A stretch of 64,000 bases of DNA from Dehalococcoidia bacterium (GCA_965220265.1 CBDCPM010000001.1:30803-94802), one strand, 5' to 3'; shown: positions 32,762-51,616, numbered from the stretch's first letter. Numbers and translations are program-made. Notes: generated by a model from the letters alone, not told the origin.

Positions 32762-33136
32762 ATGCCGACCATCGACGATCGACTGTCCGACACGGCGATA
32801 CGTTTGGGTCGCTACGAAGGCCCTGGAGGGTTCAGTGTTTGGCGCGACGATTCACCCGACGGGATCATGTTGATCGGCATTATCTGGGAAAAGTCGACCA
32901 AGGATGGCATGAAACGAGAATCATGGGATGCCTACGGATCCGTCCACTGGCCCGCAGCGCGTATGGCCACCGGCTATGACTTGGCGTCGGCGCGTTTGCA
33001 GGCACTGGAGATGCTTGCTCGGAACGGCGTCCTGAGCACCGACGCCGACGCAAACCTCTCCGGGTGGCTCGAGTCGGGCGAGGATATGCCTGTCATGGCT
33101 TCTGCCAGGACCTTCCTGCCAGAACTGGCAATCTAG
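32762..33136 (+). CDS. Hypothetical protein (124 aa)
   Basis: ORF 32747..33136. The second ATG (32762) follows GGGGAGatcaa. I recognised no family. Confidence 0.5.
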   Translation: MPTIDDRLSDTAIRLGRYEGPGGFSVWRDDSPDGIMLIGIIWEKSTKDGMKRESWDAYGSVHWPAARMATGYDLASARLQALEMLARNGVLSTDADANLSGWLESGEDMPVMASARTFLPELAI

Positions 33137-33215
33137 GTAATCGTAGAAAAAAGTTGGGATATGGCCGGCGCGCGTCGCCATTTCACAGTGCAGAGAGAGC
33201 AAAGTCAGGAGCGCT

Positions 33216-33368
33216 ATGGCACGGGACAAGCGAATGACCGTCATGGTCGAACCGGAGTTCTTGGACGAGGTGAAAGAGGCGGCCAGAAAGCGGCGGATGA
33301 AGATGTCCGAATGGGTCCGCTGGGTGGTCGAGAACGAACTCAGGCTCGAGAAGGACCGGGAGTCATGA
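33216..33368 (+). CDS. Ribbon-helix-helix (CopG-like) small DNA-binding protein, 50 aa
   Basis: It is below the ORF-track size cut-off. ATG 33216 follows AGGAgcgct. The translation is MARDKRMTVMVEPEFLDEVKEAARKRRMKMSEWVRWVVENELRLEKDRES, a beta-strand then two helices as in RHH proteins. Its stop overlaps the next start (ATGA at 33365-33368). Confidence 0.6.
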   Translation: MARDKRMTVMVEPEFLDEVKEAARKRRMKMSEWVRWVVENELRLEKDRES

Positions 33369-34528: not shown

Positions 34529-34530
34529 GT

Positions 34531-35664: not shown

Positions 35665-37216
35665 TACAGAGATAACCTCAGTCTACGAGGTCTACCACGC
35701 CCAAGAGGGAAACTCGCCTGAGTCGGTACTTGGTGCGCCCTCCAAGGACGACGTGGCCCAGACCCGCGAGATCCTGATCAACGAAATGGGCGGGCCGGAG
35801 CCCCAGGAGCTGGTTGCCTGGCTGATGGCTGGTGAGTGCCCCATGGATGCTCTACAGGAGTGTGCCGGCTGGATGGAGCGCATGTGGACGGAACAGGGGC
35901 TGCCCGTTGACGACCACATGATAGTCTCGGCGGCGGGCATGGCCAGGCTGGTCAGATTCAAACTGCCGGCCCTGAAGGCTCAGTGGGAGGAACTGGAGGG
36001 CAAGGATGTCCGGTTCCCGCTGGCGCCGGTGGTAAAGGCGTGGCAGGAACGTCCCCAACTGGTGGAGCCGGAACGTCGTTCCAGAGGAATCATCCCGGCC
36101 ACCTTCGCCCGGCGCAATCACCGGCTGCCCTTCCTGAGCAATCCCCAGCCGCCGGCCCTTCCCGGTTATGTCGAATCCGACATTACCCAAGCCCATCTGC
36201 CCGGCCTGATTCCTGACCGGCCTCCCTTGCCGGCGCTGCTCTCCCTGTACGACCGAGCGGCGGCCCCTCTGCGTCGTGGTCGGGGGGCGGCTCTGTCGCT
36301 GCGCCTGTTTATCGAGTCGCTCCTCTCCCTGCCTGTGGCGGCCCGCGACGGACGATTGCACGAGCTGCGCTTCACCATACGGGAGGTTGCCGGGGAATGG
36401 CTGGGGTGGAACCTCAAGGATTACCGTCCCACTGGTGCCCAGAAGGGCATGGCGCTCCGGCGCGCGGTCAACGAGGTCCGCGGTATGTTCGTTGATATGC
36501 CGCGGGGCGGCCTCTACTACCCAATATCGCCCCTGGCCATCTCGGGCCTTAAGCTGGAGGACCAGTTAGCCTTGATCGTGTGTCTCCCGTCAGGCTCGGA
36601 CGTCGGCCCCCCCGTGGACCGCACGATACTGCGGCAGTTAGGCAAAGTCTCCGGTCCGGCCTACCGGGCCTACCTGGCTCTTTGTTGCGAATGGGACCGG
36701 GTGGGTGGCCACAACGGTAGGCTCATCCGTCCCACACGTCCCGGCGTGATGCGATCGTCCGGCGGCCACGTTGTGGACAACCAGGGCAACGTGCTGCTGG
36801 GCAAAGGAGATCGGCCGGTGAACTCGCCCTACCATACCAACGCCGTACGAACCGGCCGCAGCGAGGCGAACCCTGCGCGTTTCAAGTACCGCGAGTATTC
36901 ATCGGGCGATCTCATCGGGATCTGCTATCCAACTGACGTTCTGACCCGCGATTCCGACCTCAGAAAGTACAAGCACCGGGCCCGCAAGGCCATTATCGAC
37001 ATCGCGGCCATGGGCGGTTGCACCATCGAGCGTCTCGGAAGCAATCCTCGCAACGACGGCCTGCCCTGGCGGGTGATGCCGCCAGATCCGTACTGGCCGC
37101 CGGACAGCTATCCGACGGTCGAGTCTGGCAACTCCGATTATCAACAGTTGCCGGCCGACATTCTCCTCACCGTGGGTCAGGGAGTGGCCCCAGTAGGGGC
37201 AGACATTTTTGAGTAG
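35645..37216 (+). CDS. Large hypothetical protein, putative replication initiator or accessory protein
   Basis: About 523 aa with an uncertain start (ATG at 35606 or 35645, overlapping the upstream gene end). I recognised no motifs. The functional guess rests only on its position between RepA-like ATPase and an inverted iteron copy. Confidence 0.45.
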   Translation: MLPSRIDTEITSVYEVYHAQEGNSPESVLGAPSKDDVAQTREILINEMGGPEPQELVAWLMAGECPMDALQECAGWMERMWTEQGLPVDDHMIVSAAGMARLVRFKLPALKAQWEELEGKDVRFPLAPVVKAWQERPQLVEPERRSRGIIPATFARRNHRLPFLSNPQPPALPGYVESDITQAHLPGLIPDRPPLPALLSLYDRAAAPLRRGRGAALSLRLFIESLLSLPVAARDGRLHELRFTIREVAGEWLGWNLKDYRPTGAQKGMALRRAVNEVRGMFVDMPRGGLYYPISPLAISGLKLEDQLALIVCLPSGSDVGPPVDRTILRQLGKVSGPAYRAYLALCCEWDRVGGHNGRLIRPTRPGVMRSSGGHVVDNQGNVLLGKGDRPVNSPYHTNAVRTGRSEANPARFKYREYSSGDLIGICYPTDVLTRDSDLRKYKHRARKAIIDIAAMGGCTIERLGSNPRNDGLPWRVMPPDPYWPPDSYPTVESGNSDYQQLPADILLTVGQGVAPVGADIFE

Positions 37217-37226
37217 GAAAAGCCCT

Positions 37227-37247
37227 GAAAACGGGACACCAAAACAC
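37227..37247 (-). repeat. Single inverted iteron copy
   Basis: GAAAACGGGACACCAAAACAC is the reverse complement of GTGTTTTGGTGTCCCGTTTTC (the repeat-3 variant of the array). It lies 11 nt after the stop at 37216. A degenerate inverted copy (16 of 18 nt shared with the iteron core) lies at 32121-32138. Confidence 0.8.
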
Positions 37248-37300
37248 ACGGCTCCGTTCGGCCCCTGCGCGGTGTCTGGCTCCGGCTGCGAGGGAGAATT

Positions 37301-37648
37301 GTGTTGACCAATTACGAACGACTGCTCTTGAAGGCGTATCAGAAGAAATACGGTCCTCAAGAGTCGTTGTTCAGGTTTTCCAAAAGCCATTGGCCCGACT
37401 GTGCATACGCGGCCAATGTAACGGCGCCGATCATGATGCCTGATTCCACGCCGCACCCGCTCATATCATGCAATGGGTGCCTTTTTCGCAAGCAGTACAT
37501 GATCGCGGTCAGATGCAACCCGAACCGACCGGACTGGTTATCCCGGGATAACGACTGTGAACTTTGTGCCTACGGGTGGGACTGCCAAACCTGGTTTCGT
37601 GTCAGCGGCGCCGGCGAAGCGGTGGAGGTCGTCTTACGGACGGTGTGA
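37301..37648 (+). CDS. Cys-rich hypothetical protein (115 aa)
   Basis: A GTG start 4 nt after GAGGGAG. It contains CNGC...C...C..C...C cysteine clusters. I recognised no family. Confidence 0.45.
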   Translation: MLTNYERLLLKAYQKKYGPQESLFRFSKSHWPDCAYAANVTAPIMMPDSTPHPLISCNGCLFRKQYMIAVRCNPNRPDWLSRDNDCELCAYGWDCQTWFRVSGAGEAVEVVLRTV

Positions 37649-38389
37649 CCGGAAGGCTGATCACCCCGTCACGTGGGGCGATACAGGATTAGTGCCGTTT
37701 CTGTCCAAAGAGCAAAACAGCCTGCGTTTTCCCACCAAATCTGACCTGTTGAGATTTCGTAATGGCATCCCGCCCAGCGTGATCATCATTGACCATGCCA
37801 CCGTTCCTCAAATCGCACGGGAAGTCAGAACGGAAGAGTTTCCTGTCGAGGCGCCGGAAGAACGCGCCGAGCGCTGGCGCAACGCTGACCGTGCCGAGAG
37901 GAAACGTATGTTGGCTGAATGGCGATGACTTTGTTGTTGGACGCGTCGCGAGATGATCACCGGATCAGCCTTCCGCACGCGCACCGTGAGACGGATTACA
38001 AAAGAGCTGACCTGCGTCGCCGACTATTGGCGATTGTGCCCGGTGAGCATCCATCAGGTGGTGCCGAGGGAAAAATTAGAACACGCCCGAAAATCACCGT
38101 TTTGGGCTGGTTTGCGCCGCAATCGCCGGGGCTCAGCCTTGGAGAGGCCGAGAAGCAGCCGCAAAGGTACTGTGGGATCTGTCGATGCGAATGCCCTCTG
38201 GCCTTTTTAGAACAGGATCTCGACCCCAGTTTCCTGCCATGCTGGCGGGGGCTGACCTAGCCGAGCATTCGTCGGCAAACAACCTGAAAATTGCACCTGC
38301 CATTAATGACAACAGCGGTGTGATGTTGTTATGGTGCATAGGTGACGCGGTGCATAGGTAAGATGGTGTGATGCAGGAGGTCAGCAGCT

Positions 38390-39052
38390 ATGCCGGTGAT
38401 CGCCATAGTCAATCAGAAGGGGGGCGTCGGCAAAACATGCTTGGCTACCAACTTGGCTTCTGCTTTAGGTAACGGAGAACCAACGCTTCTTCTGGATTGC
38501 GATCCCCAGGGCAGCGCGTCGGGTTGGATCGCCCTGGCTCCCCAGGAACGGCTGCAACTCACGGTCCGGGCCGTAGAGGAAGGAACTTTGGTCCGCCAGG
38601 TGAGAGCAGCCGTCGATGAATATCAATGGGTTGTCATCGACTGTCCCCCGGGCATCACCCGTGTCAATGCGGACGCCATTCGCGCGTCTGACATCGTACT
38701 CATACCCTGCAAGCCCCGTGTTTGGGACGTGTGGGCCTGCGAAGATATCGTTGAGGCGGTGAAGCACCGGCAGGCCGGGAATCGGGGACGGCCCAAAGCT
38801 GCGTTCGTCATTAGCATGGGGCGACCCCGCACACGCTTTACCCAGCAGATCAGCACAGCGCTGGCGGAACTGGGGTTGCCCATCTTGCAGGGGCGCACTA
38901 CGGAAAGAGAGGCCTATGCTGTGGCGGCCGGCGAGGGAAAGTCAGTGCTCGAAGGCCGGGACCGGGTGGCCATGGCTGAGATTAACGCTATTTGCGACGA
39001 AGTACAGGAGATGTGTGATGGCATTCGCGCGAAGACCCGAATCGCCCGATAA
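38390..39052 (+). CDS. parA: ParA/Soj-family partition ATPase
   Basis: MPVIAIVNQKGGVGKTCLATNLASAL...LLLDCDPQGS is the deviant Walker A of ParA. The ATG follows GGAGG. Confidence 0.9.
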   Translation: MPVIAIVNQKGGVGKTCLATNLASALGNGEPTLLLDCDPQGSASGWIALAPQERLQLTVRAVEEGTLVRQVRAAVDEYQWVVIDCPPGITRVNADAIRASDIVLIPCKPRVWDVWACEDIVEAVKHRQAGNRGRPKAAFVISMGRPRTRFTQQISTALAELGLPILQGRTTEREAYAVAAGEGKSVLEGRDRVAMAEINAICDEVQEMCDGIRAKTRIAR

Positions 39053-39233: not shown

Positions 39234-39452
39234 CGCATTATGGCAGCACGGGGTGCTCTGATAATCGGGTGCTTTGGTTATTTGGTGCAACAATCAAATG
39301 GTGAGATGGTAATCTCACACGCCTCCGTGCGGCCTCCCCTGCCGATGCTCTCGTATAGCGGCGATGTGTCGAAGGCGGCAGAGATCCGCTGACTACGGGT
39401 GTTCTACTTGAGCGGCTGACGTCGATGGCAACATTATTGGGGCCCATTGAAA

Positions 39453-40514
39453 ATGGCCAACGAACACACGCTGTTGAGTTTCATCGCCAGGCGGTACATC
39501 GCCGCCCGGGAGGACGCCGCCACCGATGCGCTCGGGTTCATACTGAACCGGTCGGAGGCGGCTAGAAATAGGCTTACGGACATCTTGCGTGAGCAAGTGC
39601 CCAACATTGTGCCGGTTGCTACGGTCAAAAACCAATTCTCCGACGCTGATGGAGGCATCCCTGATGTGGCGTGTTTCGACGCGGCCGGCCAAGTCCAAGC
39701 TCTCATAGAGGCCAAATTTTCGGCGCCTTTGACACATCATCAACCGAACACCTATTGGCAACGTCTGCCGCCCGACGTGCCAACGGCCCTCGTTTTCCTG
39801 GCTCCATCTGACCGATTGGATCATCTGCTCGGCGATTTGACCGAACGTCTCAAAGCAGTCGGCTTCCGGATGGGCGATCAGCACGGCGCAACTAACCTCA
39901 TCACGGTTCGGGATACGGCGAGCCTGCGTCACCTGATACTGATCAGTTGGGATGAGTTGCTGGACCGGTTAGCACAACCGGCGAGATCGGGTGAGGATTC
40001 GCAAACCCAGTTTGAAATCGAACAACTCCGAGGCCTCGTCAGACGTGAATACGATGAAACCGATCTCCGTAGGGACCGGGTTTTGCAGGATCTCATCCGG
40101 GAGGCTCTCAATCGGGCAGCGCGACGCGGGTGGGCCAACACCGAGAACTTGAGCAGCGGTGGACATAGTGAGTTCGCTGGCAGATATTTGCTGCTTGCTG
40201 GAACCTACGCCTTCCTCGGCGTGAACCGCAAAGCTTGGCGAGCGACAGATCGCCCCTTGTGGCTGATATTCAACAGGTACGGCGGCAGCCGTGAACGCGT
40301 CCCGACCGAAGAGGTCCGCGTGAAACTGGGTGGTCGGGGCAATTCGGAATGGCCTCTGTATCGGGCTGACGACTACTGTGTGCCTCTGGAGATGCCGCCG
40401 CCGGGTGCCGCCGCCGAGGCAAGGATCGCCTCCGTGGTTGCTCAACTCGAAGAAATTGCCCAATTGATCGATCCCCGCGGACCAACTTATCCTGTCCTGA
40501 CGGGTGCCCAATGA
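39453..40514 (+). CDS. PD-(D/E)xK nuclease-fold protein, family not recognised
   Basis: GGIPDVACFDAAGQVQALIEAKFSAPL gives a classic D...(D/E)xK arrangement (PD-x19-EAK) after an N-terminal helical region. The C-terminal 180 aa are unassigned. Confidence 0.5.
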   Translation: MANEHTLLSFIARRYIAAREDAATDALGFILNRSEAARNRLTDILREQVPNIVPVATVKNQFSDADGGIPDVACFDAAGQVQALIEAKFSAPLTHHQPNTYWQRLPPDVPTALVFLAPSDRLDHLLGDLTERLKAVGFRMGDQHGATNLITVRDTASLRHLILISWDELLDRLAQPARSGEDSQTQFEIEQLRGLVRREYDETDLRRDRVLQDLIREALNRAARRGWANTENLSSGGHSEFAGRYLLLAGTYAFLGVNRKAWRATDRPLWLIFNRYGGSRERVPTEEVRVKLGGRGNSEWPLYRADDYCVPLEMPPPGAAAEARIASVVAQLEEIAQLIDPRGPTYPVLTGAQ

Positions 40515-40772: not shown

Positions 40773-41186
40773 ATGATCACGTTGGTGAGTTGGAACATCG
40801 CCATGAGGCTCCAGGCGGTGGATGAGCTACTGGCCATGGACGCCGACGTGGCCCTCCTGCAAGAGGTGGGTCCAGGGGCCCTGGAGCGCTTGGCCGTCGC
40901 TGGTGGCGACGTCGCGGTCAGTCCCCAGGACCCCTGGGAGCCCTGGCCGAGGGACCACTTCGACCGCTGGCCCATGGTGGTGAAGCTGTCGGATCGGGTG
41001 GAGGTGGAGTGGTTCAGGCAGATCCTGCCCAGTACCCCCAGTGAAGGTGACGACGAAATCGCCGTCAGCAACGTCGGTGTCGAAAACGGCCGCCAGGTGC
41101 TTACCCTGGCGGCCGTTGTTAGCGTTTCCGGACCAAAAGGCACTCAGTGCCTTTGGAAGAGTTTCAGGGCCCCTCAGCGGCTCTGA
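40773..41186 (+). pseudogene. Endonuclease/exonuclease/phosphatase (EEP) family gene, N-terminal half only
   Basis: MITLVSWNIAMRLQAVDELLAMDADVALLQEVGPG matches the EEP N-terminal motif (SWNi......l.......DvvlLQEv). The ORF stops at 137 aa, before any GDFN or SDH catalytic motifs. No clean continuation exists in other frames. Confidence 0.45.
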
Positions 41187-41979: not shown

Positions 41980-42597
41980 ATGCAACCTGAATATCTTTCC
42001 TCCTCCCACAACGGGAATGCCGCTAACGACCGGGCCACCGCTGCCCTGCTGGTTGGCGGCGGCGTCGACGGCGTGTCCGCCTTCGTCCTGCGCCACTGGC
42101 GTCCCGGGACCGACCCGCCGGAGCCGGTGTTCGTCACCTGGCTGCTGAAAATCGGTTGTTTCTGCCTGACGGTGAGATACGGTCGGTTCTCCTTGAAGCG
42201 CGGAGAGTGGTGCATCGACACCGGGTCGGGCCCCAGGATCACGCCGTCGCCGCTGGAGCAGGCTCAGGTGGAGGCGCTGTTGATCAGGGAGATCCTGCAG
42301 GAGCGGCTGAACCGTCCGCTGTCCGTTGCGTCGGCCCTGGCCCTCTTCGATATGGACCCCGACCGGCGCATCGAGCGCCTGGCGCGACGAAGCCGCGTTC
42401 CGCTGCTGTGGGACCTGGAAGGCTACACCGGGCGATTGGCCGATGCCGCGGCAAGAGCCGGGCTCCGCCAGCCACTGGAAAGATGGCAGGCCCTGGAGGA
42501 GATATCCGCCCTCATCGAGGGCGCCGCTCCCGTTGGCGCCGGCCCATTCCGTGACGACATCAAAAGCAGCGCATCAAAGGAGCGCCACCAACCATGA
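41980..42597 (+). CDS. NERD-like paralogue 1 (nuclease motif degenerate)
   Basis: 205 aa, with the ATG after AGGAGcagaacca. It is colinear with the next gene product: GCFCLTVRYGRFSLKRGEWCIDTGSGPRITPSPLEQAQVEA...ALFDMDPDRRIERLARRSRVPLLW. Confidence 0.5.
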   Translation: MQPEYLSSSHNGNAANDRATAALLVGGGVDGVSAFVLRHWRPGTDPPEPVFVTWLLKIGCFCLTVRYGRFSLKRGEWCIDTGSGPRITPSPLEQAQVEALLIREILQERLNRPLSVASALALFDMDPDRRIERLARRSRVPLLWDLEGYTGRLADAAARAGLRQPLERWQALEEISALIEGAAPVGAGPFRDDIKSSASKERHQP

Positions 42598-43334
42598 GAA
42601 TGTATCCGAGAGAGTTTCCGGCCGGCCGTCGCAAGAAGCCGAAGCGGCAGGCGGAAAGACGCGTCTACGAAGCCCTGGCTGGAAGCGACCGCCAGGGCTT
42701 TATCTATTACGAGTGGCGCCAGGGATATGAGCACATCGAGCTGGACTTCGCCGTGTGGGTCAAGGGCCTGGGGCGCTTCGCCCTGCAACTGAAAGGCGGT
42801 CAGTATCTCATCGTCGACGGTGAGTGGCACTTGAAGACCAGGGCCGGCGTCCAGCCGATCGCCGCCTCCCCGTTGGACGAGGCCTGGCTGGCCATGCTGG
42901 ACCTGCACGACGACATCAAGGAACTGGCGGAGACCACTTACAACCCCTTCGTGATCCCGGTGCTGGTGTTCCCCGACATGGAGCCCGACGAGGCCATCGA
43001 GAAGCTGGCGCGCCGGAAGGGGGTTTACCTGGTCTGGCGCACCGAGGACCTCATGGCGGACCTGATCGCCATCGTCCGAAGCCGGGGAGTGACCGACGCG
43101 TTGACGATGGACCGCATTGCCCGCGAGGTGGCGGCCGTCACGGACGGCCTGATCCAGCTGGATGTGCCGGCAGGAGAGAAGACTCGTGCCGAAATCGAGA
43201 GGCCAAGCACCCTGTCCCTGTCGGTGGGCGGTCGCAACGTCCTGCGAGTCAGCGCCGGGGAGATGCACCTGCGGGTTCGGACCATCATCGGCATTGGGAC
43301 GCCGCAAAAGGGGAGCGCCGGACGCCGGCGTTGA
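42594..43334 (+). CDS. NERD-domain protein (paralogue 2, nuclease motif retained)
   Basis: 246 aa. AERRVYEALAG...YEHIELDFAVWVKGLGRFALQLKGGQY fits the NERD pattern (E..v...L.....E.DfvV....g...ieVKgg). Its start overlaps the paralogue-1 stop (ATGA at 42594-42597). Confidence 0.65.
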   Translation: MRMYPREFPAGRRKKPKRQAERRVYEALAGSDRQGFIYYEWRQGYEHIELDFAVWVKGLGRFALQLKGGQYLIVDGEWHLKTRAGVQPIAASPLDEAWLAMLDLHDDIKELAETTYNPFVIPVLVFPDMEPDEAIEKLARRKGVYLVWRTEDLMADLIAIVRSRGVTDALTMDRIAREVAAVTDGLIQLDVPAGEKTRAEIERPSTLSLSVGGRNVLRVSAGEMHLRVRTIIGIGTPQKGSAGRRR

Positions 43335-43359
43335 GGGCTGTGTCCCCGTGGTCGATCAA

Positions 43360-43407
43360 GCAGAGAGCGCCGGTGGGGACCCGTTCCACCGGCGCTCTCT
43401 GCTTTGG
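43360..43407 (+). terminator. Intrinsic terminator or attenuator hairpin
   Basis: A perfect 17-bp stem, GCAGAGAGCGCCGGTGG (43360-43376) with CCACCGGCGCTCTCTGC (43386-43402). The loop is 9 nt, and TTTGG follows. Confidence 0.6.
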
Positions 43408-43481
43408 CATCGCGGCGAGCCCGCCACTTTTCACATCCCCAATTCCAATCCAATCGATAGATCAATCAGGAGAACAGCAAC

Positions 43482-45257
43482 ATGAACCACGACACCGCGG
43501 GCGTTGGGCCCGCCATTCTTGACCGGCACCCGGGGCTGGACGAGGGCCAGCGGGAGCTCATCGGGCGCTTGGAAGGCCCGACTTTGGGCATCGCCGGTCC
43601 CGGCTCGGGCAAGACCCTGGCGGTGGCGCTCCGGGGCGCCAACATCCTGCTGCAGGGCAAGGCCAGGCCCGAGGAGCTGGTGCTGTGCACCTACTCGCGG
43701 GCTGCGGCACGGGAGCTTCGCCAGCGTTTCATCAGGCTGACCAGCGCCGCCGGCTGCACAGGAGACCTGACCAAGGTGCGCATCGGCACCATCCACGGCC
43801 TGTGTGGCCGGATCCTGCGCTCCCACGCTCACCGCGCCGGTCTCCGGTCTGACTTCAAGGTGCTCAACGAGGACGAGCAGTGGCATCTCCTGATGCAGCA
43901 CTACGACGATGTATTCGGTTCCGACCTGCACGTTCTGGAGGGGGAGGGCTGGCGCTGGAAAGAGCCGCATCTGGTGATCCGGCACGGCTGCAAATATTTC
44001 GAGCGGATCTGCGACGAGCTCATCGCCCCTGATGAACTGATCGATTCCGGCGACCCATTCCACGCCGCCCTGGGCCGGTGCTATCTCCGCTACCGGGACC
44101 TGCTCCTCGATGAGGGGCGGGCGGACTTCGATCACCTGCAGCGGTGGGCCGCGGAGCTCCTGGAGGACGACCGCATCGCGGACCCCATCGCAGACGGCAC
44201 CAGGTATCTGATCTGCGACGAGTACCAGGACACGAGCGCCGTCCAGGAGCGCCTGCTGCTGCGGCTGTCCCGCAGCCACGGCAACATCTGCGTGGTGGGG
44301 GATGACGACCAGGCAATCTACCGTTTCCGCGGCGCCAGCGTGAGGAGCCTCCTGGAGTTTCCCGACCGCTTCGCCAACTGCCACACCGTGGAGCTGGGCG
44401 TCAACTACCGCAGCCATCCGGACATCGTGCGCTTTTACGACGGGTGGATGGCCACCGCCGCCGACTGGTCCAGTCCCGATGCGGGCGGTCGGCCCTTCCG
44501 CTACCCCAAGTCCATCACGCCCCACGACACCGGCGCGCATCGGGAGTATCCGGCGGTCATAGCCGTGGAGGGCCGGAGCGCCGGGAACGAGCGGAGACAG
44601 CTGGTGGAGTTGGTGGAGTTCCTGAAGGGCCGCGGGGTCATCGCCCGGTACGACCAGGTGGCGTTGCTGCTGCACTCGGTGCAAGGAGCCTCGGCCGTCG
44701 GCTACCTGGACGCCCTGGAAGGCGCGGGGATAGCGGTGAACCGCGCGCCTTCCGGAACCGGGAGACGCCGACGCGCCGGTTCCCGCCGGGGTCTCACCGT
44801 CACCACCATCCACCAGGCCAAGGGCCGGGAATGGGACGTGGTGATCGTGGGCTCACTGAACTTCGACAACCCCGACGTGGATCCGGTGGGCCGGGAGCTC
44901 GCGCCCTACGTGCGGAGGCCCGCCTTCGAGCCGGCCGACCGCATCGCGGAGTTCGACCACGCCCGCCAGCACTACGTGGCCTTCTCCCGGCCGCGGAGTC
45001 TGCTGGTGCTGACTGCCAGCGGCCGTGTGCATCCTCGTTTTGAAGACGCCTGGGAGCGCCTGCCCCGCTGGGACCGGATGGACCGCCGGGCGCTGGCCCG
45101 CCAGCGGTTTCGGCCGCCGGAGTCATCCGTTGATGAGGAGCGTGCCCAGAGACCGGTGCGGGTCATCCCATACCTGAGGCGGCTGGATGTGTGGCTTGGA
45201 CGCGCTGCTGCTGCAACCGGTGCGATGCCGCAGAGGCGGAAAGACCGCCGCTCGTAG
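43482..45257 (+). CDS. UvrD/Rep-type SF1 helicase (short form, 591 aa)
   Basis: Motif I is IAGPGSGKTLA. It also contains ICDEYQDTS, VVGDDDQAIYRFRGA, VNYRSHPDIV and TIHQAKGREWDVVIV. The ATG follows AGGAGaacagcaac. Confidence 0.9.
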   Translation: MNHDTAGVGPAILDRHPGLDEGQRELIGRLEGPTLGIAGPGSGKTLAVALRGANILLQGKARPEELVLCTYSRAAARELRQRFIRLTSAAGCTGDLTKVRIGTIHGLCGRILRSHAHRAGLRSDFKVLNEDEQWHLLMQHYDDVFGSDLHVLEGEGWRWKEPHLVIRHGCKYFERICDELIAPDELIDSGDPFHAALGRCYLRYRDLLLDEGRADFDHLQRWAAELLEDDRIADPIADGTRYLICDEYQDTSAVQERLLLRLSRSHGNICVVGDDDQAIYRFRGASVRSLLEFPDRFANCHTVELGVNYRSHPDIVRFYDGWMATAADWSSPDAGGRPFRYPKSITPHDTGAHREYPAVIAVEGRSAGNERRQLVELVEFLKGRGVIARYDQVALLLHSVQGASAVGYLDALEGAGIAVNRAPSGTGRRRRAGSRRGLTVTTIHQAKGREWDVVIVGSLNFDNPDVDPVGRELAPYVRRPAFEPADRIAEFDHARQHYVAFSRPRSLLVLTASGRVHPRFEDAWERLPRWDRMDRRALARQRFRPPESSVDEERAQRPVRVIPYLRRLDVWLGRAAAATGAMPQRRKDRRS

Positions 45258-45332
45258 TCCTGACGGCCAATGACGACCTGGACGGCGACGAGAACGTCGC
45301 CGCGACCCTGCTGCAAGGAGGTGAACAACATC

Positions 45333-45455
45333 ATGCACACTGAGAACGGCGTCACTGCTAGGGCGAGGGCTCCGCCTGTCCGATATGCGTGGTGCGCCGC
45401 ATGGACCCGTCGGCACACCGGCGGTCCGGTTGCATCCCCAACCTCACCTGGGTAG
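45333..45455 (+). CDS. Candidate 40-codon small ORF or leader peptide
   Basis: The ATG at 45333 lies 8 nt after AAGGAGGTGA, a near-perfect SD, in an otherwise gene-free gap. The peptide is MHTENGVTARARAPPVRYAWCAAWTRRHTGGPVASPTSPG. A terminator-like hairpin follows. The composition is not clearly protein-like. Confidence 0.3.
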   Translation: MHTENGVTARARAPPVRYAWCAAWTRRHTGGPVASPTSPG

Positions 45456-45502
45456 AGCCATGCCCAGAAACAATCCACCGCGCTCGTATGTTCCACTGAC
45501 GT

Positions 45503-45540
45503 GGGCCGGCCTGGGACACATCCCGGGTCGGCCCGTTTTC
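45503..45540 (+). terminator. Intrinsic terminator or attenuator hairpin
   Basis: GGGCCGGCCTGGG (45503-45515) pairs with CCCGGGTCGGCCC (45522-45534) over 13 bp, including two G-U wobbles. The loop is ACACAT, and GTTTTC follows. Confidence 0.5.
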
Positions 45541-45596
45541 ATGTCTGAGCCACCGGCGCGATCGACAACACCAAATCTCAAAAGAGGTAACAACAG

Positions 45597-46301
45597 ATGA
45601 AAGTCGTAAACAACGACGACGACAACAACCGACCCCTGACCCTGGCCGAGATGGAGGCCTGCCAGCAGTTCGAGGCAAGCAACCGGGAGGGCCAGGCCCT
45701 GTTCCACCCCCAGGTGGCCGCCGGCCAGCCCGTCCCGAACTGCGTCGCCCTCTTCGAGGAGGTCGGCCGCTTCGCCGTAACCATCCCGAAAGGCCGGTGC
45801 TCCGTAGAGGACGGGCAGTGGTTCCGCCACGATGCCGACGGCGCTGTGGCGGCGGTCGACAACCCCCTGGAGGGCGCCTGGCAGGCCGCCAAGGCGGTCC
45901 GCGCCGAGATCAAGCGCGAGCTGGACCTCAACACCTACGTCATCGCGGTGTTGTGGTTCCCCGACATGGAGGAGGACGAGGACATCCTGGAAGAAGCCGA
46001 AGGGCGCAGCGTACACCTGATCTTCGGCGAGGTTGACCTGGTCCAGCGGCTGGTCAGTCTACCCAAGGACGATGAGCTGCAGACGCACCTCAGCCGCCGG
46101 TACATCAAGCAGGAGGTGGCGGCGTTGAGTCGCCCCTCTGCCGAGGTGTCGCCGGAACCGGCCGAGGACTCCTCACCCGCAGTGAGGGGGCGGGTCGGCG
46201 CGTTGGTCCTGGAGCGGGTGGAAACCGTAAACGTCTACATCACCATCGTGTATGGCGATATGGGAGACGATCCCCCGCTGATCACCGTGCGGAGCCAGTA
46301 G
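45597..46301 (+). CDS. NERD-like paralogue 3 (nuclease motif degenerate)
   Basis: 234 aa, with the ATG after AGAGGtaacaacag. GRFAVTIPKGRCSVEDGQWFRHDADGAVAAVDNPLEGAWQAAKAV...YVIAVLWFPDMEEDEDILEEAEGRSVHLIF is colinear with paralogues 1 and 2. Confidence 0.55.
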   Translation: MKVVNNDDDNNRPLTLAEMEACQQFEASNREGQALFHPQVAAGQPVPNCVALFEEVGRFAVTIPKGRCSVEDGQWFRHDADGAVAAVDNPLEGAWQAAKAVRAEIKRELDLNTYVIAVLWFPDMEEDEDILEEAEGRSVHLIFGEVDLVQRLVSLPKDDELQTHLSRRYIKQEVAALSRPSAEVSPEPAEDSSPAVRGRVGALVLERVETVNVYITIVYGDMGDDPPLITVRSQ

Positions 46302-46392
46302 GCTCAAAGGGGCGCCCGGGCGTTGCTTTCCGCTTTGCCCGGGCGCGTGCGGCGCATCATTCGCTGCTTACGTGCTAGGATGTAACTACGTA

Positions 46393-46414
46393 TTTGCAAT
46401 TACTATTTTGCAAT
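46393..46414 (+). promoter_or_regulatory. Direct-repeat operator overlapping a -10-like box upstream of brnT
   Basis: TTTGCAAT occurs at 46393-46400 and 46407-46414, followed by GATAAT. A 10-bp perfect GC hairpin (GCGCCCGGGC...GCCCGGGCGC) lies just upstream, at roughly 46311-46345. Confidence 0.4.
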
Positions 46415-46433
46415 GATAATAAGGCAGGCCTCG

Positions 46434-46736
46434 GTGCAGTGGACTTGGGACCCGGAAAAGAACGATGAGAACCGGCGCAAACATCACATCTCATTTGAGA
46501 TGGCCAGGCTGGTGTTCGACGACCCGCTGTATGTGTCGGTTGAGGATCCCTACGAAGACGAACCCAGATCGCGCACCTTCGGCATGGTTGAAGAGGTGCT
46601 CATCTTAGTGATTCACACCTGGCCGGAAATAGGCTTGGACGAGCGTAAATATCCGGGACGGATCATCAGCGCTCGGAGGGCCACCGTCCGTGAGAAGGGG
46701 GAATATGAAGAAAGGAGACGCTGGTCTGACCGATGA
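46434..46736 (+). CDS. brnT: BrnT (DUF497) ribonuclease toxin
   Basis: VQWTWDPEKNDENRRKHHISFEMARLVFDDP...GRIISARRATVREKGEYEE matches BrnT (f.WD..K...N..KHgvsFeeA..vF.D...riISaR.At..E...Y). I prefer the GTG at 46434 after AAGGCAGG over the ATG at 46413, which sits inside the promoter. Confidence 0.85.
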   Translation: MQWTWDPEKNDENRRKHHISFEMARLVFDDPLYVSVEDPYEDEPRSRTFGMVEEVLILVIHTWPEIGLDERKYPGRIISARRATVREKGEYEERRRWSDR

Positions 46737-47115
46737 GCAACGCGCCGAGCTGGCGGCGTTGGCCGAGCTTCCGGAAGACCAGATTGACACGACGGATATC
46801 CCCGAGGTTTTGGACTGGACCCACGCCCGCCGCGCTGACCTTTACCGGCCGATCAAACAGCAGGTCACCCTGCGGTTGGATGCGGATATTCTGGCCTGGT
46901 TCAAGGAACGCGCTCCGGGCGGTCGTGGCTATCAGACCGATATCAACAGAGCCTTGAGAGAGCACATCAGTCGTTCTAGTGGAACCGACGCATCCACGTG
47001 CTTGCCCGGCAACAACGATGTATTGGCAGCTCTCAAGGATGGTGAGATCACAGTTTCGCAGGCCGGTCGGAAAATCCGGGAGTCTCGTGCTGAGGCGCGG
47101 GATAATGACGTCTGA
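46705..47115 (+). CDS. brnA: BrnA antitoxin
   Basis: DIPEVLDWTHARRADLYRPIKQQVTLRLDADILAWFKERAPGGRGYQTDINRALREHI is the BrnA signature. The ATG at 46705 follows AGGGGGaat and overlaps the brnT end. Confidence 0.8.
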   Translation: MKKGDAGLTDEQRAELAALAELPEDQIDTTDIPEVLDWTHARRADLYRPIKQQVTLRLDADILAWFKERAPGGRGYQTDINRALREHISRSSGTDASTCLPGNNDVLAALKDGEITVSQAGRKIRESRAEARDNDV

Positions 47116-47504: not shown

Positions 47505-47717
47505 TTACCAAGGCCATGGCCTCATCAATCCCCATTCGGTGACTCTGCCGGCATTGTCCCGCCAGGCCGGTGTGACATAGATGCCCACCAACCACCGTTG
47601 GATTGCGTATCGGATGCGGGTGGGAGCCACGGCCAACTCTTCCGCCAACTGGGGCACCGACCGTGGGCCATGGCTCAGGCAGCGCCCGATTTGATGGCAC
47701 AGGTGGTCATACCCCAT
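47505..47717 (-). CDS. Small HTH protein coupled to the recombinase (possible excision or regulatory factor)
   Basis: 70 aa. GPRSVPQLAEELAVAPTRIRYAIQRW looks like a helix-turn-helix. Its ATG overlaps the recombinase stop (TGATG at 47715-47719). Confidence 0.4.
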   Translation of the reverse strand: MGYDHLCHQIGRCLSHGPRSVPQLAEELAVAPTRIRYAIQRWLVGIYVTPAWRDNAGRVTEWGLMRPWPW

Positions 47718-48742
47718 CAGGCCTTCTTCTTCCGCTTGCGGGAATACAACTGGGCGACGACGCTGCGGCCGGCGAACTGTGCCCCGACGTAACGGGCCAC
47801 CGTCTGGGATGACTTCCAGCGGCCCACGGCCTGGAGCTGGGGCATGGTGGCGCCGGCTTCCGCCAGGTCGACGGCCATGCCGACCCGGCAGCTGTGGCCG
47901 CTGTAGCCTTCCCCCAGACCGGCGGCCACCGCGGCGGCGGCGATGCGTTCGCTGATGGTGGCCGGCTTCAGGTCGAACACCTTCTCTTCGCCCTCGTCCT
48001 TTTCCTCCCCGGGCAGCAGCTGTTGCCTGGGTCGGATCCGGTCCACCGCCTTCATGGTGGGCGGTCCCAGGTAGAGCACCACGCCCTCGCCCTCCTGGTC
48101 GGTCTTGGACCAGGGTATGGTCAACCGGCCGGACCCGTCCGGCTCGGTGACGATGTGTTTCCAGAGGATTTCGGCGGCCTCGGAGCGGCGCAGCAGGGCG
48201 TCGCGCATCACCGAGATCAGGGCGATGTCCACCAGGCCGCGGCGTCGGGCGTTGCGGGAATGCTCCATTCCGCGCTCGGTCTTTCGTGGGTTGCGGGCGG
48301 TTTCCCGGATCTTCTCGAGGTCTTCACCGGTGAGGGGTTTGGCGCGTTTTTCGCGTTGGCCCGCTTCCTTGGCGCGGTTGACGAACCCCTTGATGACCAT
48401 GGCCACCCTATCTTTGCAGGGGCTGTCGTATTTCGCGGACCGGTGCTCGGCGGCGATGCTGGAGGCGTAGCCTCTGAGGGTGTTGGGTTTCTTGCCGACT
48501 AAACCCTGTGTGAAGATGAACACGGCCACGGTTTCCGGATCGGCCGGCAGGGATTGAAATCCCCTTGCCTGGCACCACTCTTCGAAGGTGTTCCATTGCT
48601 GGCCCTGCTGATAGCGGGTGGTTTTAGCCCGGCTTTCCTCGGCCACCTCGCTGACCAGTTTCTCCATCAGCTCCCGCACGTCCGGTAGGTTGGCGGGGGA
48701 TGGGGGAGCCTGGGGCTCTGGGGACAGTACGGGTGTGGTCAT
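47717..48742 (-). CDS. Tyrosine site-specific recombinase (Cre/phage-integrase family)
   Basis: 341 aa. It has an N-terminal SAM-like core-binding region (TTRYQQGQQWNTFEEWCQARGF), then LLRRSEAAEILWKHI, GYSGHSCRVGMAVDLAEAG (HxxR) and GRWKSSQTVARYVG (catalytic Tyr). Confidence 0.9.
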   Translation of the reverse strand: MTTPVLSPEPQAPPSPANLPDVRELMEKLVSEVAEESRAKTTRYQQGQQWNTFEEWCQARGFQSLPADPETVAVFIFTQGLVGKKPNTLRGYASSIAAEHRSAKYDSPCKDRVAMVIKGFVNRAKEAGQREKRAKPLTGEDLEKIRETARNPRKTERGMEHSRNARRRGLVDIALISVMRDALLRRSEAAEILWKHIVTEPDGSGRLTIPWSKTDQEGEGVVLYLGPPTMKAVDRIRPRQQLLPGEEKDEGEEKVFDLKPATISERIAAAAVAAGLGEGYSGHSCRVGMAVDLAEAGATMPQLQAVGRWKSSQTVARYVGAQFAGRSVVAQLYSRKRKKKA

Positions 48743-48929
48743 TTTGTTTTCCTTCGGGATTAATAACTAAAACTTACATTATGATTCTTGACTATACATA
48801 ATCTTTCTGATAAAATCAAGATTAGTATAAAACTAAGTATGATCAGCAGTTAAAAACTAATAAATTTAGTGTTTCCTGGTGCAGGGCTGCCGCTGGACCC
48901 CATTGTCCCAGGTTCGCCATTGTCCCAGG
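48743..48929. promoter_or_regulatory. AT-rich (about 25% GC) divergent control region with repeated motifs
   Basis: It contains TTGACT-N17-TAAAAT. Three AAAACTAA-like repeats are present. AATCTT and AAGATT form an inverted pair. CCATTGTCCCAGG occurs twice (48900-48912 and 48917-48929). The region lies between the recombinase and the MTase-like gene. Confidence 0.5.
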
Positions 48930-49014
48930 ACACCGCATGATTTGGCTCAAACGTTCCCCACTTTCAGGGGCGCCTGGGATAACGCAATGTCCCGCCATGG
49001 GGTATAATGGGATA

Positions 49015-49980
49015 ATGCCGCTACCACGAAACCTCACCGACGACCAGGTGCGCTACGTCCGCACCTCGCTGAAATCCTCGGTCCAACTGGCCGACGAGCT
49101 GCCGGTGGACCGGAAGGCGATCGACCGGATCAGGCACCGGCAAACCTACAAGGATGTCCCCGATGCGCCGCCCACCGCCGATCCTCCCGCCGCCCTGCGT
49201 CGCAACGACTACGTGTTGGGCGACGCCCTCGAGCTGATGGCTGATCTGCCCGACGGATATGCGGAGACCGTGGTTGCCATGCCGCCCTTGTTCCGGCCGC
49301 CGCACGCGAGCCAGTCCCAGGTACGGCAGGCCAGGTCAAGCCATGTCGATCGCCAGAAGTCGATCATCCGGGAGGGCCGGCGCGTCGCCGGGCCCAACGG
49401 GGTGCTGCTCTACGTGCATCGTTACGACCTGACGGCTGACCTGCTGGACGTCGGTCCCGGCGGAATTCCGGAGTTCTCCCCGGAGCAGGTCATCGTCTGG
49501 GATACCTTGGCCAAAGAGGACCCGCCCTCTGCTTCCACGCGCCGGATCCCGGGGCAGCATCGCGCCATCTATGTCTTCGCCGGGGACCGCTGGCGCCTCC
49601 CGCTGGATATCAGGGACCAGGTCGGAGATTGGGGAGACCTGTGGCCCTTCAGAGCGCAACTCCGGGACGGTGACTTGCGGGAATTCCCTGAGGAACTGGC
49701 CGATCGCCTCATCGCCATGGGTCGCGGGCGGGTGCTGGACCCCTTCGCCGAGCTGGGCGCCATTGGACTGGCGGCGGCCAGGAAGAACCGGGAGTGGACC
49801 CTCTTCGGCAAGAGCGCGGTGGACCAGCACACGTTTCGTCGAAACCTGCAGGCGTTCTACCAGGAACGCGCTTTTCCAACAAAGACGGTGGTGCAATCCG
49901 TGCGTCCGCCTCCGCAGAGCAGGTCCACCGGCAAGGGGCGATCGCGGCCACCTGGGCCGGACCAGCGGATCTTGCTCTGA
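49015..49980 (+). CDS. N4/N6 DNA-methyltransferase-like protein with degenerate catalytic and SAM motifs and an N-terminal HTH
   Basis: The layout matches N6_N4_Mtase: LGDALELMADLPDGYAETVVAMPPLF (in place of D/SPPY/F) and EFPEELADRLIAMGRGRVLDPFAELGAIGLAAARKNREW (in place of DPF.GSGTT). TATAAT at 49003-49008 ends 6 nt before the ATG at 49015, so the mRNA may be leaderless. Alternative starts are 48937 and 48997. Confidence 0.6.
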   Translation: MPLPRNLTDDQVRYVRTSLKSSVQLADELPVDRKAIDRIRHRQTYKDVPDAPPTADPPAALRRNDYVLGDALELMADLPDGYAETVVAMPPLFRPPHASQSQVRQARSSHVDRQKSIIREGRRVAGPNGVLLYVHRYDLTADLLDVGPGGIPEFSPEQVIVWDTLAKEDPPSASTRRIPGQHRAIYVFAGDRWRLPLDIRDQVGDWGDLWPFRAQLRDGDLREFPEELADRLIAMGRGRVLDPFAELGAIGLAAARKNREWTLFGKSAVDQHTFRRNLQAFYQERAFPTKTVVQSVRPPPQSRSTGKGRSRPPGPDQRILL

Positions 49981-50110
49981 TGCCCCGCCTTCCGTGCAGT
50001 TGTCCTTCCGGCACGGCCGGAAGCCGGATCTTGGTAACCCTCCCCCATGGGATCTTGAGGCTTTTGACGCAGTAGGTACTAACTAACTATGATGGTTTCG
50101 GGAGGCCATC

Positions 50111-50515
50111 ATGATGATTGACCGAGAACAGAGATATCGGGACATGGCGATGCGGGGCAAGTACCGGAGACTGTACGCCCACCTCTGCGGCCTGGGCTCC
50201 CGGGAGTGGAACGCTTCCTTCACCGAGGTGGAGGCGGTGCTGGGCTTCCAGCTTCCTGTCTCGGCCCGTATGCACCGGCCCTGGTGGGCCAACCAGAGCC
50301 GAGGGAACGGGCACAGCCACGCCCTGGCCTGGACCACGGCCGGATGGGAGACCGCCCAGGTCGACATGGAAGCCGAGACGCTGCTGTTCCGGCGTAGGGA
50401 GCCCGAGCCCATTGGAAACCTTGATCTCGACGAGTTATGGCCCGTCCACTCTGCCGGCGCGTGGCCGTCAGACCTCAGCCTCCGCCGGGAGGACGTCTAC
50501 CACGAGAGGATTTAA
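50111..50515 (+). CDS. Putative antitoxin of VapC: conserved LP.SAR...WWAN module plus a short VapB-like tail
   Basis: 134 aa, with the ATG after GGAGGccatc. YRRLYAHLCGL...FTEVEAVLGFQLPVSARMHRPWWANQ...HALAWTTAGWE is a widespread module of unknown function. The tail ends LSLRREDVYHERI, and vapC starts 8 nt downstream. Confidence 0.55.
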   Translation: MMIDREQRYRDMAMRGKYRRLYAHLCGLGSREWNASFTEVEAVLGFQLPVSARMHRPWWANQSRGNGHSHALAWTTAGWETAQVDMEAETLLFRRREPEPIGNLDLDELWPVHSAGAWPSDLSLRREDVYHERI

Positions 50516-50523
50516 CTCGGGGG

Positions 50524-50946
50524 ATGTTCGTCGATACCAACATCCTGGTGAACGCCCGCATCCGCGAGGCGCCGCACCACGAAATCGCCAGGGAAGGTTT
50601 GGAAAGCGCCCTTCGCGGTCCCGAACCGCTGTGCATCAGCCGCCAGGTCATGCGCGAGTATCTGGCGGTCGTCACCCGTCCCCAGGCCTGGCCGGTGCCC
50701 ATCACCCGCGGGGAGGCCCTCGACGACATCGGGCGCCTGAGCAGAGCTTTCGAAGTGCTTGAGGATGGCCCGCGGGTGACTGACATGCTGGTGGCCCTGT
50801 GCCGGGACGTCCAGGTGGGAGGCAGGCAGGTCCACGACGCCAACATCGTGGCCACCATGCTGGCCCACGGCGAGCGCCGGCTGCTCACCTTCAACACCGC
50901 GGACTTCCGGCGCTACGGCGGCCGACTTGAACTGGTAACCGGCTGA
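50524..50946 (+). CDS. vapC: PIN-domain toxin VapC
   Basis: MFVDTNILVNA...QVHDANIVATMLAHGERRLLTFNTADFRRY carries the canonical PIN acidic residues and layout. Confidence 0.9.
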   Translation: MFVDTNILVNARIREAPHHEIAREGLESALRGPEPLCISRQVMREYLAVVTRPQAWPVPITRGEALDDIGRLSRAFEVLEDGPRVTDMLVALCRDVQVGGRQVHDANIVATMLAHGERRLLTFNTADFRRYGGRLELVTG

Positions 50947-51121
50947 CTCCCGCCCGGTTCCGTGTCCGGGTCCGCCGACCACGGCAGCCGGCTTGCCGCG
51001 CTGCCGAATTCAGTTTTGTGTTCCCCACGCTCGTATCGAGCGGCTGCAGCCGGCGCTTCCGGCAACCCGGCGTGCGCTGCCCCCTGGCATAATCACATCC
51101 GATGACCATGGAGGTCATGCC

Positions 51122-51595
51122 ATGAAATGGAAAGATCTCATCGACCTGGCGCGGGAGATGGCGACAACTCCGCCGTCTGACCGTCTCCACCAGGCCAAAC
51201 TTCGTCTCGCGGTCGCCACCGTCTATTACGCCATGTACCACGCCCTGGCCCGCAGCAACGCGGACCTGCTGATCGGTCCGTCCGAAACGGAGGGCAGCGC
51301 GCCGGAGTGGAACCGCGTCCACATGGCCCTGGGCGGGGACTCGGCGCATGAGCTGCTGCAGGCCGACTTCTCCCGCCATCCCGAGGCGATCCGGCGGTTC
51401 GTCGATGAGTTCCTCGCCGCGCATGATCAGCGGCTGCTGGCCGAGGAGGACCCGGCGGCCACCTTCACCACCGACCAGGCCCGGGACTGGGTTGATCGAG
51501 CCGAGACGGCCATCGCCGAGTTCCTTACCATAGGGCCCGAACAACGCCGAGCCTTTGCCCTTGAGTTGCTGCCGGTCCAACCATTGGAGAAATAG
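51122..51595 (+). CDS. HEPN-like all-helical protein
   Basis: 157 aa from the ATG at 51122, after GGAGGtcatgcc. AVATVYYAMYHALARSNADLL resembles the HEPN helix (sRaYYA.fHa..all). The usual R..aDY motif is not intact (QRLLAEED). Confidence 0.45.
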   Translation: MKWKDLIDLAREMATTPPSDRLHQAKLRLAVATVYYAMYHALARSNADLLIGPSETEGSAPEWNRVHMALGGDSAHELLQADFSRHPEAIRRFVDEFLAAHDQRLLAEEDPAATFTTDQARDWVDRAETAIAEFLTIGPEQRRAFALELLPVQPLEK

Positions 51596-51616
51596 TTCCC
51601 ATCGGCAGGGCTGTGG

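Follow-up and report, generated by a model that had tools for sequence, protein, structure and literature searches.

A candidate nuclease-helicase defence module with catalytically degenerate NERD-like paralogues in SAR202/Dehalococcoidia

The window analysed here, a stretch of 64,000 nt from a Dehalococcoidia bacterium (GCA_965220265.1 CBDCPM010000001.1:30803-94802, whose positions are used throughout), carries a compact genetic module. Its core is composed of a small NERD-like PD-(D/E)xK protein (P2), a UvrD/Rep-type helicase of superfamily 1 (SF1), a small leader open reading frame (ORF) and a catalytically degenerate paralogue of P2 (P3), while a further degenerate paralogue (P1) is an optional extra. 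The module is best read as a mobile nuclease-helicase defence system borne on defence islands of SAR202/Dehalococcoidia, which are marine Chloroflexota so far uncultivated, a reading in which we place roughly even confidence. As judged from gene neighbourhood and domain composition, defence is the most likely function, since the module sits among restriction and other anti-phage genes.

A portable core of three genes

The four main ORFs of the locus lie on the forward strand: P1 (41980..42597, 205 aa), P2 (42594..43334, 246 aa), the helicase (43482..45257, 591 aa) and P3 (45597..46301, 234 aa). A first-pass annotation, made by reading the window by itself, had given them these lengths and positions, which hold, and had described P1 and P2 as translationally coupled by an overlap; the stop codon of P1 and the start codon of P2 do overlap, as ATGA. 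It had also taken the three small ORFs for paralogues with a colinear core, which BLASTP bore out for P1 and P2 (E 6e-19), P2 and P3 (E 6e-19) and P1 and P3 (E 4e-10), in matches spanning approximately 150-170 residues. The motifs GRFA, G.W, PL(D/E).AW and FPDME.D..I are common to the small proteins and colinear in the alignments, and a profile-profile comparison of the P2 and P3 families with hhalign returned a probability of 99% (E 6.5e-18).

P2, helicase and P3 were found intact and in that order in 19 out of 22 distinct loci with unrelated flanks, and the helicase is always located between P2 and P3 where the trio occurs. P1 is present in five of the 22 loci and takes three different positions: it precedes P2, overlapping it as ATGA, in the window, L007-9 and L015, follows P3 in L026, and lies between the helicase and a P2-like gene in L027. 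Among the loci, DNA similarity extends from about 50 nt ahead of P2 to just past a hairpin which follows P3. The unrelated flanks and the sharp edges of similarity indicate that the trio is a discrete portable module, to which P1 is accessory. The proposal that these genes form a conserved functional unit is thus upheld for the trio, whereas the fixed four-gene cassette, in which paralogues bracket the helicase, has to be abandoned, given the rarity and the variable place of P1. Moreover, the gene set, three intercistronic hairpins and the leader ORF, which encodes an R(A/G)PP motif, are conserved together.

The relatives in named genomes (11) all belong to metagenome-assembled genomes (MAGs) of Dehalococcoidia/SAR202, and two divergent copies occur in each of three of these genomes. 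Several relatives are decayed: the helicase is frameshifted into two ORFs in L001 (8891-10991) and split by an insertion of approximately 1.4 kb in L012 (9397-10781), P3 is truncated in L011, and P2 stands alone in L018 and L028 (2/22). A P2 fragment of 67 residues, a trace of duplication, was observed upstream of P1 in L015 (6962-7120). A near-identical search of the cassette DNA against PLSDB plasmids gave no match, tblastn of P2 against 72,556 plasmid records and 50,697 GenBank phage records found no relative, and neither did a profile-guided scan of the IMG/VR viral contigs; a scan of JGI metagenomes yielded only five loci.

An active site kept in one paralogue and lost in the others

P2 is apparently a NERD-type PD-(D/E)xK protein whose E-D-(Q/E)xK site is intact, and is predicted from sequence and structural model to be an active nuclease. 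Residues E21, D51, Q65 and K67 are invariant among 44 orthologues. The family comprises 582 database clusters without annotation, and the 120 matches listed are at least 63% identical to P2. In the AlphaFold2 (AF2) model, whose core has a pLDDT (the predicted score of the local distance difference test) above 90, the elements follow the order alpha-beta-beta-beta-alpha-beta, with helices at residues 16-29 (E21) and 93-112 and strands at 35-43, 47-56 (D51), 61-66 (Q65, K67) and 120-126. The catalytic residues are therein placed on alpha1, beta2 and beta3, which is the PD-(D/E)xK arrangement: the core topology of the superfamily, a glutamate on alpha1, an acidic residue on beta2 and (D/E/Q)xK on beta3. 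The Foldseek matches of the P2 model were led by Cdn1, MspJI, EndoMS, Card1 and Can2, all weak (best E 4e-3, TM at most 0.32), and the top-probability matches of the P2 and P3 models are all PD-(D/E)xK enzymes, again with weak scores. Against BFVD only weak matches were obtained, to uncharacterised proteins and to MmcB- and Mrr-like proteins, and a profile search of PDB sequences returned nothing meaningful.

The relation to NERD becomes visible at the level of the superfamily. An exhaustive profile search gathered 651 clusters at 50% identity, and the 150 representatives listed are all small stand-alone proteins of 84-377 aa. Among them, the P2-like clade features E-D-QxK in 62 cases and the canonical E-D-ExK in 24, while in the P3-like clade the catalytic positions are taken by residues that are hydrophobic or small. 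The Pfam family NERD (PF08378) matched 17 out of 149 superfamily representatives at E<=0.01 (best 1.1e-8) and 12 of the 44 P2 orthologues (best E 0.0034), and it is the only Pfam family recurring among the representatives. P2 of the window aligns with positions 3-111 of the 111 of the profile at 14.5 bits (E 0.053), short of the gathering score of 22.1 bits, and P1 and P3 match neither NERD nor any other Pfam family. On this sequence evidence the small proteins are a divergent NERD branch, and the term NERD-like is right for the superfamily, because NERD alone recurs in it; the proteins of the window themselves fall below a Pfam call. PADLOC v2, NCBIfam and PHROGs gave no match for P1, P2 or P3. 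The NERD-like nature suggested in the first-pass annotation is supported, as a NERD/PD-(D/E)xK-like fold, by the AF2 models, the Foldseek matches and the NERD matches of the representatives. Its statement that P2 alone keeps the NERD nuclease-type arrangement is borne out with a qualification: the four residues are invariant, but the motif is QxK rather than ExK and P2 remains under the Pfam cut-off.

The loss of the catalytic positions in P1 and P3, noted beforehand for the window, extends to their whole families. P3 is represented by 192 clusters at 60-96% identity, with N, T and L-P at the catalytic positions family-wide, and P1 by 174 database clusters which keep the core motifs and carry V, T and a variable residue at those positions. 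In the AF2 model of P3 the secondary-structure elements follow one another as in that of P2, and the best Foldseek matches of P3 are NucS/EndoMS (2vld, prob 0.94), followed by the small subunit of R.BspD6I and by Card1, McrC and Cdn1. P3 and P1 share the fold of P2 with the catalytic site destroyed, and yet are under strong purifying selection; for P2 and P3, the comparison of folds is made by the order of the elements and by hhalign. The C-terminal tails of P2 (residues 195-246, 43176-43334) and P3 (residues 183-234, 46143-46301) are conserved within each family and predicted as short beta-strands, with pLDDT below 50 in the monomer models. These tails may be interface segments of a hetero-complex.

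The helicase

The protein encoded between P2 and P3 is a helicase of the UvrD/Rep type (SF1A), as had been proposed. It matches PF00580 with an E-value of 8.7e-54 (183.5 bits), as well as AAA_19 and UvrD_C_2 (28.3, cut-off 27.4), while UvrD_C lies just below its cut-off (25.5 against 25.6). The motifs are readable in the translation, namely the Walker A sequence GPGSGKT, DEYQD, VGDDDQAIYRFRGA and TIHQAKGREWD. Structures of PcrA and UvrD match residues 19-316 only (E approximately 5e-32), the C-terminal half being divergent, and the GajB models of PADLOC, which are its best matches there, cover the N-terminal half (6e-45).

Leader and hairpins in the intercistronic spacers

The spacer of 339 nt which separates the helicase from P3 contains a small ORF, overlooked in the first-pass annotation and found by aligning the spacers of the loci. 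It spans 45315..45455 on the forward strand with its perfect Shine-Dalgarno sequence (SD, AAGGAGGTG, 45315-45323), and runs from the ATG at 45333 over 40 codons to 45455. Both SD and ATG are conserved in the alignment, and so are the first 15 or so codons, which read M-x(4-5)-G-x-N-A-x-x-R-(A/G)-P-P; beyond these, neither frame nor length is kept. The small ORF with its motif is present in 16 of the 19 trios, and R(A/G)PP recurs in 15 distinct loci, starting 11 codons past the ATG, or 12 in a single case; in the window, R-A-P-P occupies codons 12-15 (45366-45377). For the arginine, CGG, CGA, AGA and AGG codons all occur, and synonymous variation is seen at the A/G and second proline positions as well, which indicates that selection acts on the peptide. 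An RNA structure in this stretch was considered and rejected, the arginine being kept across the four codons.

Of the ribosome-arrest cores, RAPP and RGPP are reportedly the two most robust; they are refractory to EF-P and strongly avoided in proteomes, and are employed in small upstream ORFs of diverse genes (PMC12992588; on arrest motifs see also PMC10951233). The small ORF resembles ApdA, ApdP, the RAPP/RGPP upstream ORFs of Streptomyces and the SecM-type RAGP peptides in being short, co-oriented with and upstream of a gene, and in its invariant R-(A/G)-P-P; as in the newer RAPP/RGPP examples, the downstream gene, here P3, is unrelated to protein localisation. Unlike the characterised arrest peptides, it has no signal peptide and carries its motif at codons 12-15 rather than at the C-terminus, from 3 to more than 80 non-conserved codons following; arrest is here a prediction from the motif. 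The R(A/G)PP leader may couple the synthesis of P3 to translation status.

Three hairpins accompany the genes. Hairpin 1 (43359..43403, forward strand), detected by folding and alignment of the loci, is a GC-rich stem-loop of 20 bp located 3' of P2 and followed by a T-rich stretch. It folds at -45 kcal/mol (z -6.4) and is followed by UUU only, after a U-rich 3' arm; its core GCGCCGGTGG/CCACCGGCGC is conserved in approximately 12 of 15 aligned loci. Hairpin 2 (45501..45541, forward strand), recovered by a terminator scan and by folding, has the features of an intrinsic terminator: a stem of 16 bp (45501-45536) which closes a loop of 4 and is followed by UUUUC, with a folding energy of -33.7 kcal/mol (z -4.4). 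It is placed 47 nt past the stop codon of the small ORF and about 60 nt ahead of the P3 start, and it is kept in 16 loci, in which 90% of the cells of the alignment are paired; where a change affects one side only, it gives a G-U wobble on the sense strand. Both sides are changed in three pairs, and the covariation score is reached by 22 of 500 shuffles; the pattern fits a stem at the RNA level, with modest evidence of covariation. The conservation of hairpins 1 and 2 extends to loci in which the identity of P3 is down to about 45%. Hairpin 3 (46312..46346, forward strand), identified by alignment and folding, is an 11-bp GC stem (GCGCCCGGGCG...CGCCCGGGC) directly 3' of the P3 stop codon; it is conserved among the loci and marks the right edge of their similarity, has no U tract, and its z-score in the window alone is only -1.5.

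The hairpins before the helicase and P3 had been reported at 43360-43407 and 45503-45540; they are real and conserved, with boundaries now refined to 43359-43403 and 45501-45536. A search of Rfam over 38-49 kb gave no match at E<=1, which indicates that hairpins and leader do not belong to a known RNA family. The hairpins probably grade the expression of the three genes. The conditional read-through formerly suggested for them is plausible, the R(A/G)PP ORF providing a candidate mechanism, and the alternative is a simple partial termination which sets the stoichiometry of the subunits. No anti-terminator pairing between leader and hairpin 2 was evident in the minimum-free-energy fold of 45300-45610.

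Genomic setting

The setting of the module is that of a defence island or mobile element, in agreement with the toxin-antitoxin, recombinase and plasmid-maintenance context described for the window beforehand, as BrnTA, a tyrosine recombinase and ParA lie nearby. Upstream of the module, the window holds an AAA_25 ATPase (34420-35664), ParA (38390-39052), a 355-aa ORF (39447-40514) and a remnant of an exonuclease/endonuclease/phosphatase (EEP) gene (40773-41186); between 41186 and 41980 no convincing gene was found. Together with an HNH endonuclease on the reverse strand (30513-31244) and a 536-aa ORF (35606-37216), the gene set in 30513-39052 looks like the backbone of a plasmid or integrative element. 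The 355-aa ORF has no significant family match (MksE, E 0.021), but contains a stretch ...DVACFD...ALIEAKF... which reads as D...ExK-like and may, on sequence, denote another PD-(D/E)xK protein. The EEP remnant aligns with the first 93 of approximately 264 residues of intact homologues in L025 and L016. The EEP gene was rejected as a core part: intact copies adjoin the trio in L001-4 alone, whereas the gene lies far from it in L016 and L025 and is reduced to these 93 residues in the window. The two window ORFs upstream of the module had no match in PADLOC.

Directly downstream, overlapping ORFs encode a BrnT toxin and a BrnA antitoxin (46413-47115), with a promoter-like site at 46393-46420. 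These are followed by a tyrosine recombinase on the reverse strand (47717-48742), an N6_N4 methylase-like gene with a weak match (48937-49980) and, again on the reverse strand, a DEAD/Helicase_C protein of 879 aa (51617-54256), which also has an MZB Zn-binding domain. The genes in 47717-54256 may be further cargo of defence or mobile elements. The composition of the window is mosaic, a 1973-aa ORF on the reverse strand (21230-27151; GC content at third codon positions 0.92) lying in a block of 66-73% GC versus 52-60% elsewhere.

In the other loci, McrBC was found near the module twice, in different contexts (adjoining it directly in L025 and no more than 7 kb away in L021), and the neighbours include PemK, Fic, N6/N4 and C5 methylases, REase_II and many transposases and integrases. 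A bulk scan of 92 neighbour ORFs from 11 genome loci registered SoFic (3), Type IIG restriction-modification (best E 4.6e-221) and ParA (3), in addition to DrmMI-like methylases, Type II restriction endonucleases, AriA-like proteins, a KAP NTPase, a Type ISP domain, Uma2 and transposases.

Comparison with known systems

As far as can be judged from sequence, the module would work like a nuclease-helicase defence system, yet it belongs to neither Gabija, having no GajA, nor Nhi, not being fused. As in Gabija, a stand-alone helicase of the UvrD family is encoded beside a stand-alone nuclease in defence islands, and the helicase matches the GajB profile (6e-45). This match covers only the generic N-terminal half of the helicase, and in PADLOC the GajB-type matches are confined to this protein. 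Its partners are NERD-like: a small PD-(D/E)xK nuclease takes the place of the ABC-ATPase/TOPRIM OLD protein GajA, of which the cassette has no homologue, and dead paralogues and a leader ORF are added. Nhi and Nhi-like proteins, classed with the nuclease-NTPase defence systems, likewise combine a NERD/PD-(D/E)xK-type nuclease with an SF1 helicase; in Nhi, however, these form a single polypeptide with no inactive paralogue, whereas here nuclease and helicase are separate genes in 19/19 trios and the 150 representatives listed, of 84-377 aa, are too short to include a helicase.

Hachiman (HamA and HamB), AbpAB and PD-T4-x also associate a small PD-(D/E)xK effector with a larger helicase, and complex formation has been reported across this class, but their helicases belong to superfamily 2 (SF2), HamA is a DUF1837 rather than a NERD protein, and none of them has a degenerate nuclease copy as a third conserved gene. 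A dead paralogue kept as the obligate partner of an active PD-(D/E)xK nuclease is found in R.BspD6I, whose small subunit is the second-best match of P3, in the BbvCI-type enzymes and in XPF-ERCC1, and RecBCD and AddAB couple active and inactivated paralogous domains to UvrD-like motors. In comparison with these pairs, the homology is at fold level only, the genes are separate, small and island-borne, and a heteromer is here proposed rather than known. Literature searches retrieved no described system in which a UvrD helicase accompanies a NERD nuclease together with dead paralogues that have been retained, and PADLOC v2, NCBIfam, Pfam and PHROGs name none for P1-P3, so that the earlier view of the cassette as unnamed is sustained.

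Function of the module

Operons of a nuclease with an SF1 or SF2 NTPase are an established class of defence systems, in which complex formation is the rule (10.1101/2025.07.10.664194), and a GajB-like UvrD helicase pairs with alternative effectors (10.64898/2025.12.08.692795). A defence system built from the present genes could act as follows. P2 would pair with its dead paralogue P3, or with P3 and P1, in an asymmetric nuclease nicking or cutting foreign or aberrant DNA, as modelled on heterodimeric restriction enzymes and XPF-ERCC1. The UvrD-type motor would load at the nick or end and unwind or translocate, and in so doing would amplify the damage or deliver the nuclease, a nick-and-unwind scheme with precedents in MutH-UvrD and in GajA-GajB of Gabija. 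The hairpins would attenuate transcription or stabilise segments of the transcript, leading to graded amounts of the three proteins, and ribosomes stalled by the R(A/G)PP leader would make the synthesis of P3, encoded beyond the terminator-like hairpin 2, dependent on the condition of the translation apparatus. A stronger version, in which the arming of the system itself is gated by translation, the leader setting the amount of P3 relative to P2 and motor and a phage or plasmid that disturbs host translation shifting the complex from restraint to DNA cutting, is improbable in our judgement.

Besides the neighbourhood, the points in favour of defence are the synteny in 19/22 loci despite unrelated flanks, the sharp edges of the module, the census of active sites, the PD-(D/E)xK topology and the leading structural matches of both models, all of them nucleases, NERD as the one recurrent Pfam family, the UvrD/PcrA and GajB matches of the helicase, the R(A/G)PP leader and the occurrence of several divergent copies per genome. 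Furthermore, frequent decay (split or frameshifted helicases, solo P2) is to be expected of costly accessory genes and was counted on the same side.

Other observations weigh against this reading. The defence neighbours are raw counts, in genomes rich in restriction-modification genes and transposases everywhere. The host is uncultivated, and no PADLOC v2 defence model recognises P1, P2 or P3. The models score poorly against known structures (best E 4e-3, TM 0.2-0.35), most members of the P2 family carry Q rather than E in the (D/E)xK motif, and the formation of a P2-P3 heteromer and its nicking activity are proposed purely by analogy. As regards the leader, in most loci R(A/G)PP is not near the C-terminus of the ORF, unlike in characterised arrest peptides; in the window it lies approximately 220 nt from the P3 ATG and 125 nt from hairpin 2, and at the latter distance no direct coupling mechanism is evident. 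Finally, the plasmid- or ICE-like backbone of ParA, AAA_25 ATPase and tyrosine recombinase in the window and several loci means that the module could serve the element which carries it.

This last point introduces a different explanation, which we consider doubtful, according to which the module helps a carrier plasmid or integrative element to replicate, recombine, resolve or establish, by AddAB/RecBCD-like end processing or nick-and-unwind initiation, rather than attacking invaders. ParA is located within a few kb in the window, L001-3, L011, L016 and L017, the AAA_25 ATPase and the tyrosine recombinase occur in the window, integrases or transposases flank most loci, and the protein identity of orthologues is high (63-80%). 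Precedents are also available, as helicases of the UvrD/PcrA type serve rolling-circle plasmids, and in AddAB and RecBCD SF1 helicases are joined to PD-(D/E)xK or helicase paralogues, both active and inactivated. Many loci, however, have no backbone genes within 8-10 kb and do have restriction or other defence genes, and the sharp edges and unrelated flanks imply that the module moves independently of any one backbone. In addition, neither a Rep nor a relaxase gene is linked to it, and the plasmid, phage and IMG/VR searches described above retrieved no relative.

The position of P3 behind its own arrest-motif leader and terminator-like hairpin speaks for separately controlled expression, and thereby for an addiction or abortive-infection module of the toxin-antitoxin kind, which we consider unlikely. 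P2 and the helicase would here be a DNA-damaging toxin and P3, with P1 where present, a decoy which holds it in inactive hetero-oligomers; P3 supply would require translation through the leader and passage of the terminator, so that shut-off or loss of the element would release P2. The conservation of P3 and P1 despite their dead sites would fit this scheme, as would the conserved C-terminal tails of P2 and P3, modelled with low confidence as monomers in the way interface segments often are, the classical toxin-antitoxin pairs BrnTA and PemK adjoining the module, and the rarity of solo P2 (2/22). On the other hand, an antitoxin is normally in excess and encoded first, whereas P3 comes last and behind a terminator; the P2 genes standing alone in L018 and L028 would be lethal as unrestrained toxins, unless inactive; the helicase would have no obvious role; and the P2-P3 interaction is itself conjectural.

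An accessory, lineage-specific pathway of mismatch or damage repair, with a NucS/EndoMS-like or MutH-like endonuclease and a UvrD helicase, recalls the classical nick-and-unwind pair of the PD-(D/E)xK nickase MutH with UvrD, and agrees with the best structural match of P3 (NucS/EndoMS), with the presence of EndoMS among the P2 matches and with a helicase equally close to PcrA/UvrD and GajB, but it is highly improbable, considering the patchy, multi-copy, island-borne and often pseudogenised distribution, the flanking transposases, restriction-modification genes and toxin-antitoxin pairs in place of housekeeping genes, and structural matches that are weak and common to many unrelated PD-(D/E)xK enzymes.

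Conclusions

With a defence role, the module would bring into the nuclease-NTPase class a composition new to it, in which a NERD nuclease encoded on its own is accompanied by a UvrD motor and by one or two retained pseudo-nuclease paralogues. To our knowledge, this class is known almost entirely from Proteobacteria and Firmicutes, and the immune repertoire of SAR202/Dehalococcoidia, an abundant and uncultivated lineage of marine and sponge-associated bacteria, is essentially uncharted.

For a specialist, the most surprising features would be the conserved pseudo-nuclease subunits and the arrest-motif leader in a candidate immune operon. The set of active and dead paralogues offers a compact model for pseudo-enzymes which regulate or direct nucleases, and the leader would extend regulation by arrest peptides to a DNA-targeting module, with a testable link between translation status and nuclease activation. 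If the gating of the system by translation were true, this would be the first immune system placed under a nascent-peptide arrest sensor and the first in which a NERD nuclease is regulated by pseudo-nuclease paralogues built into the system.

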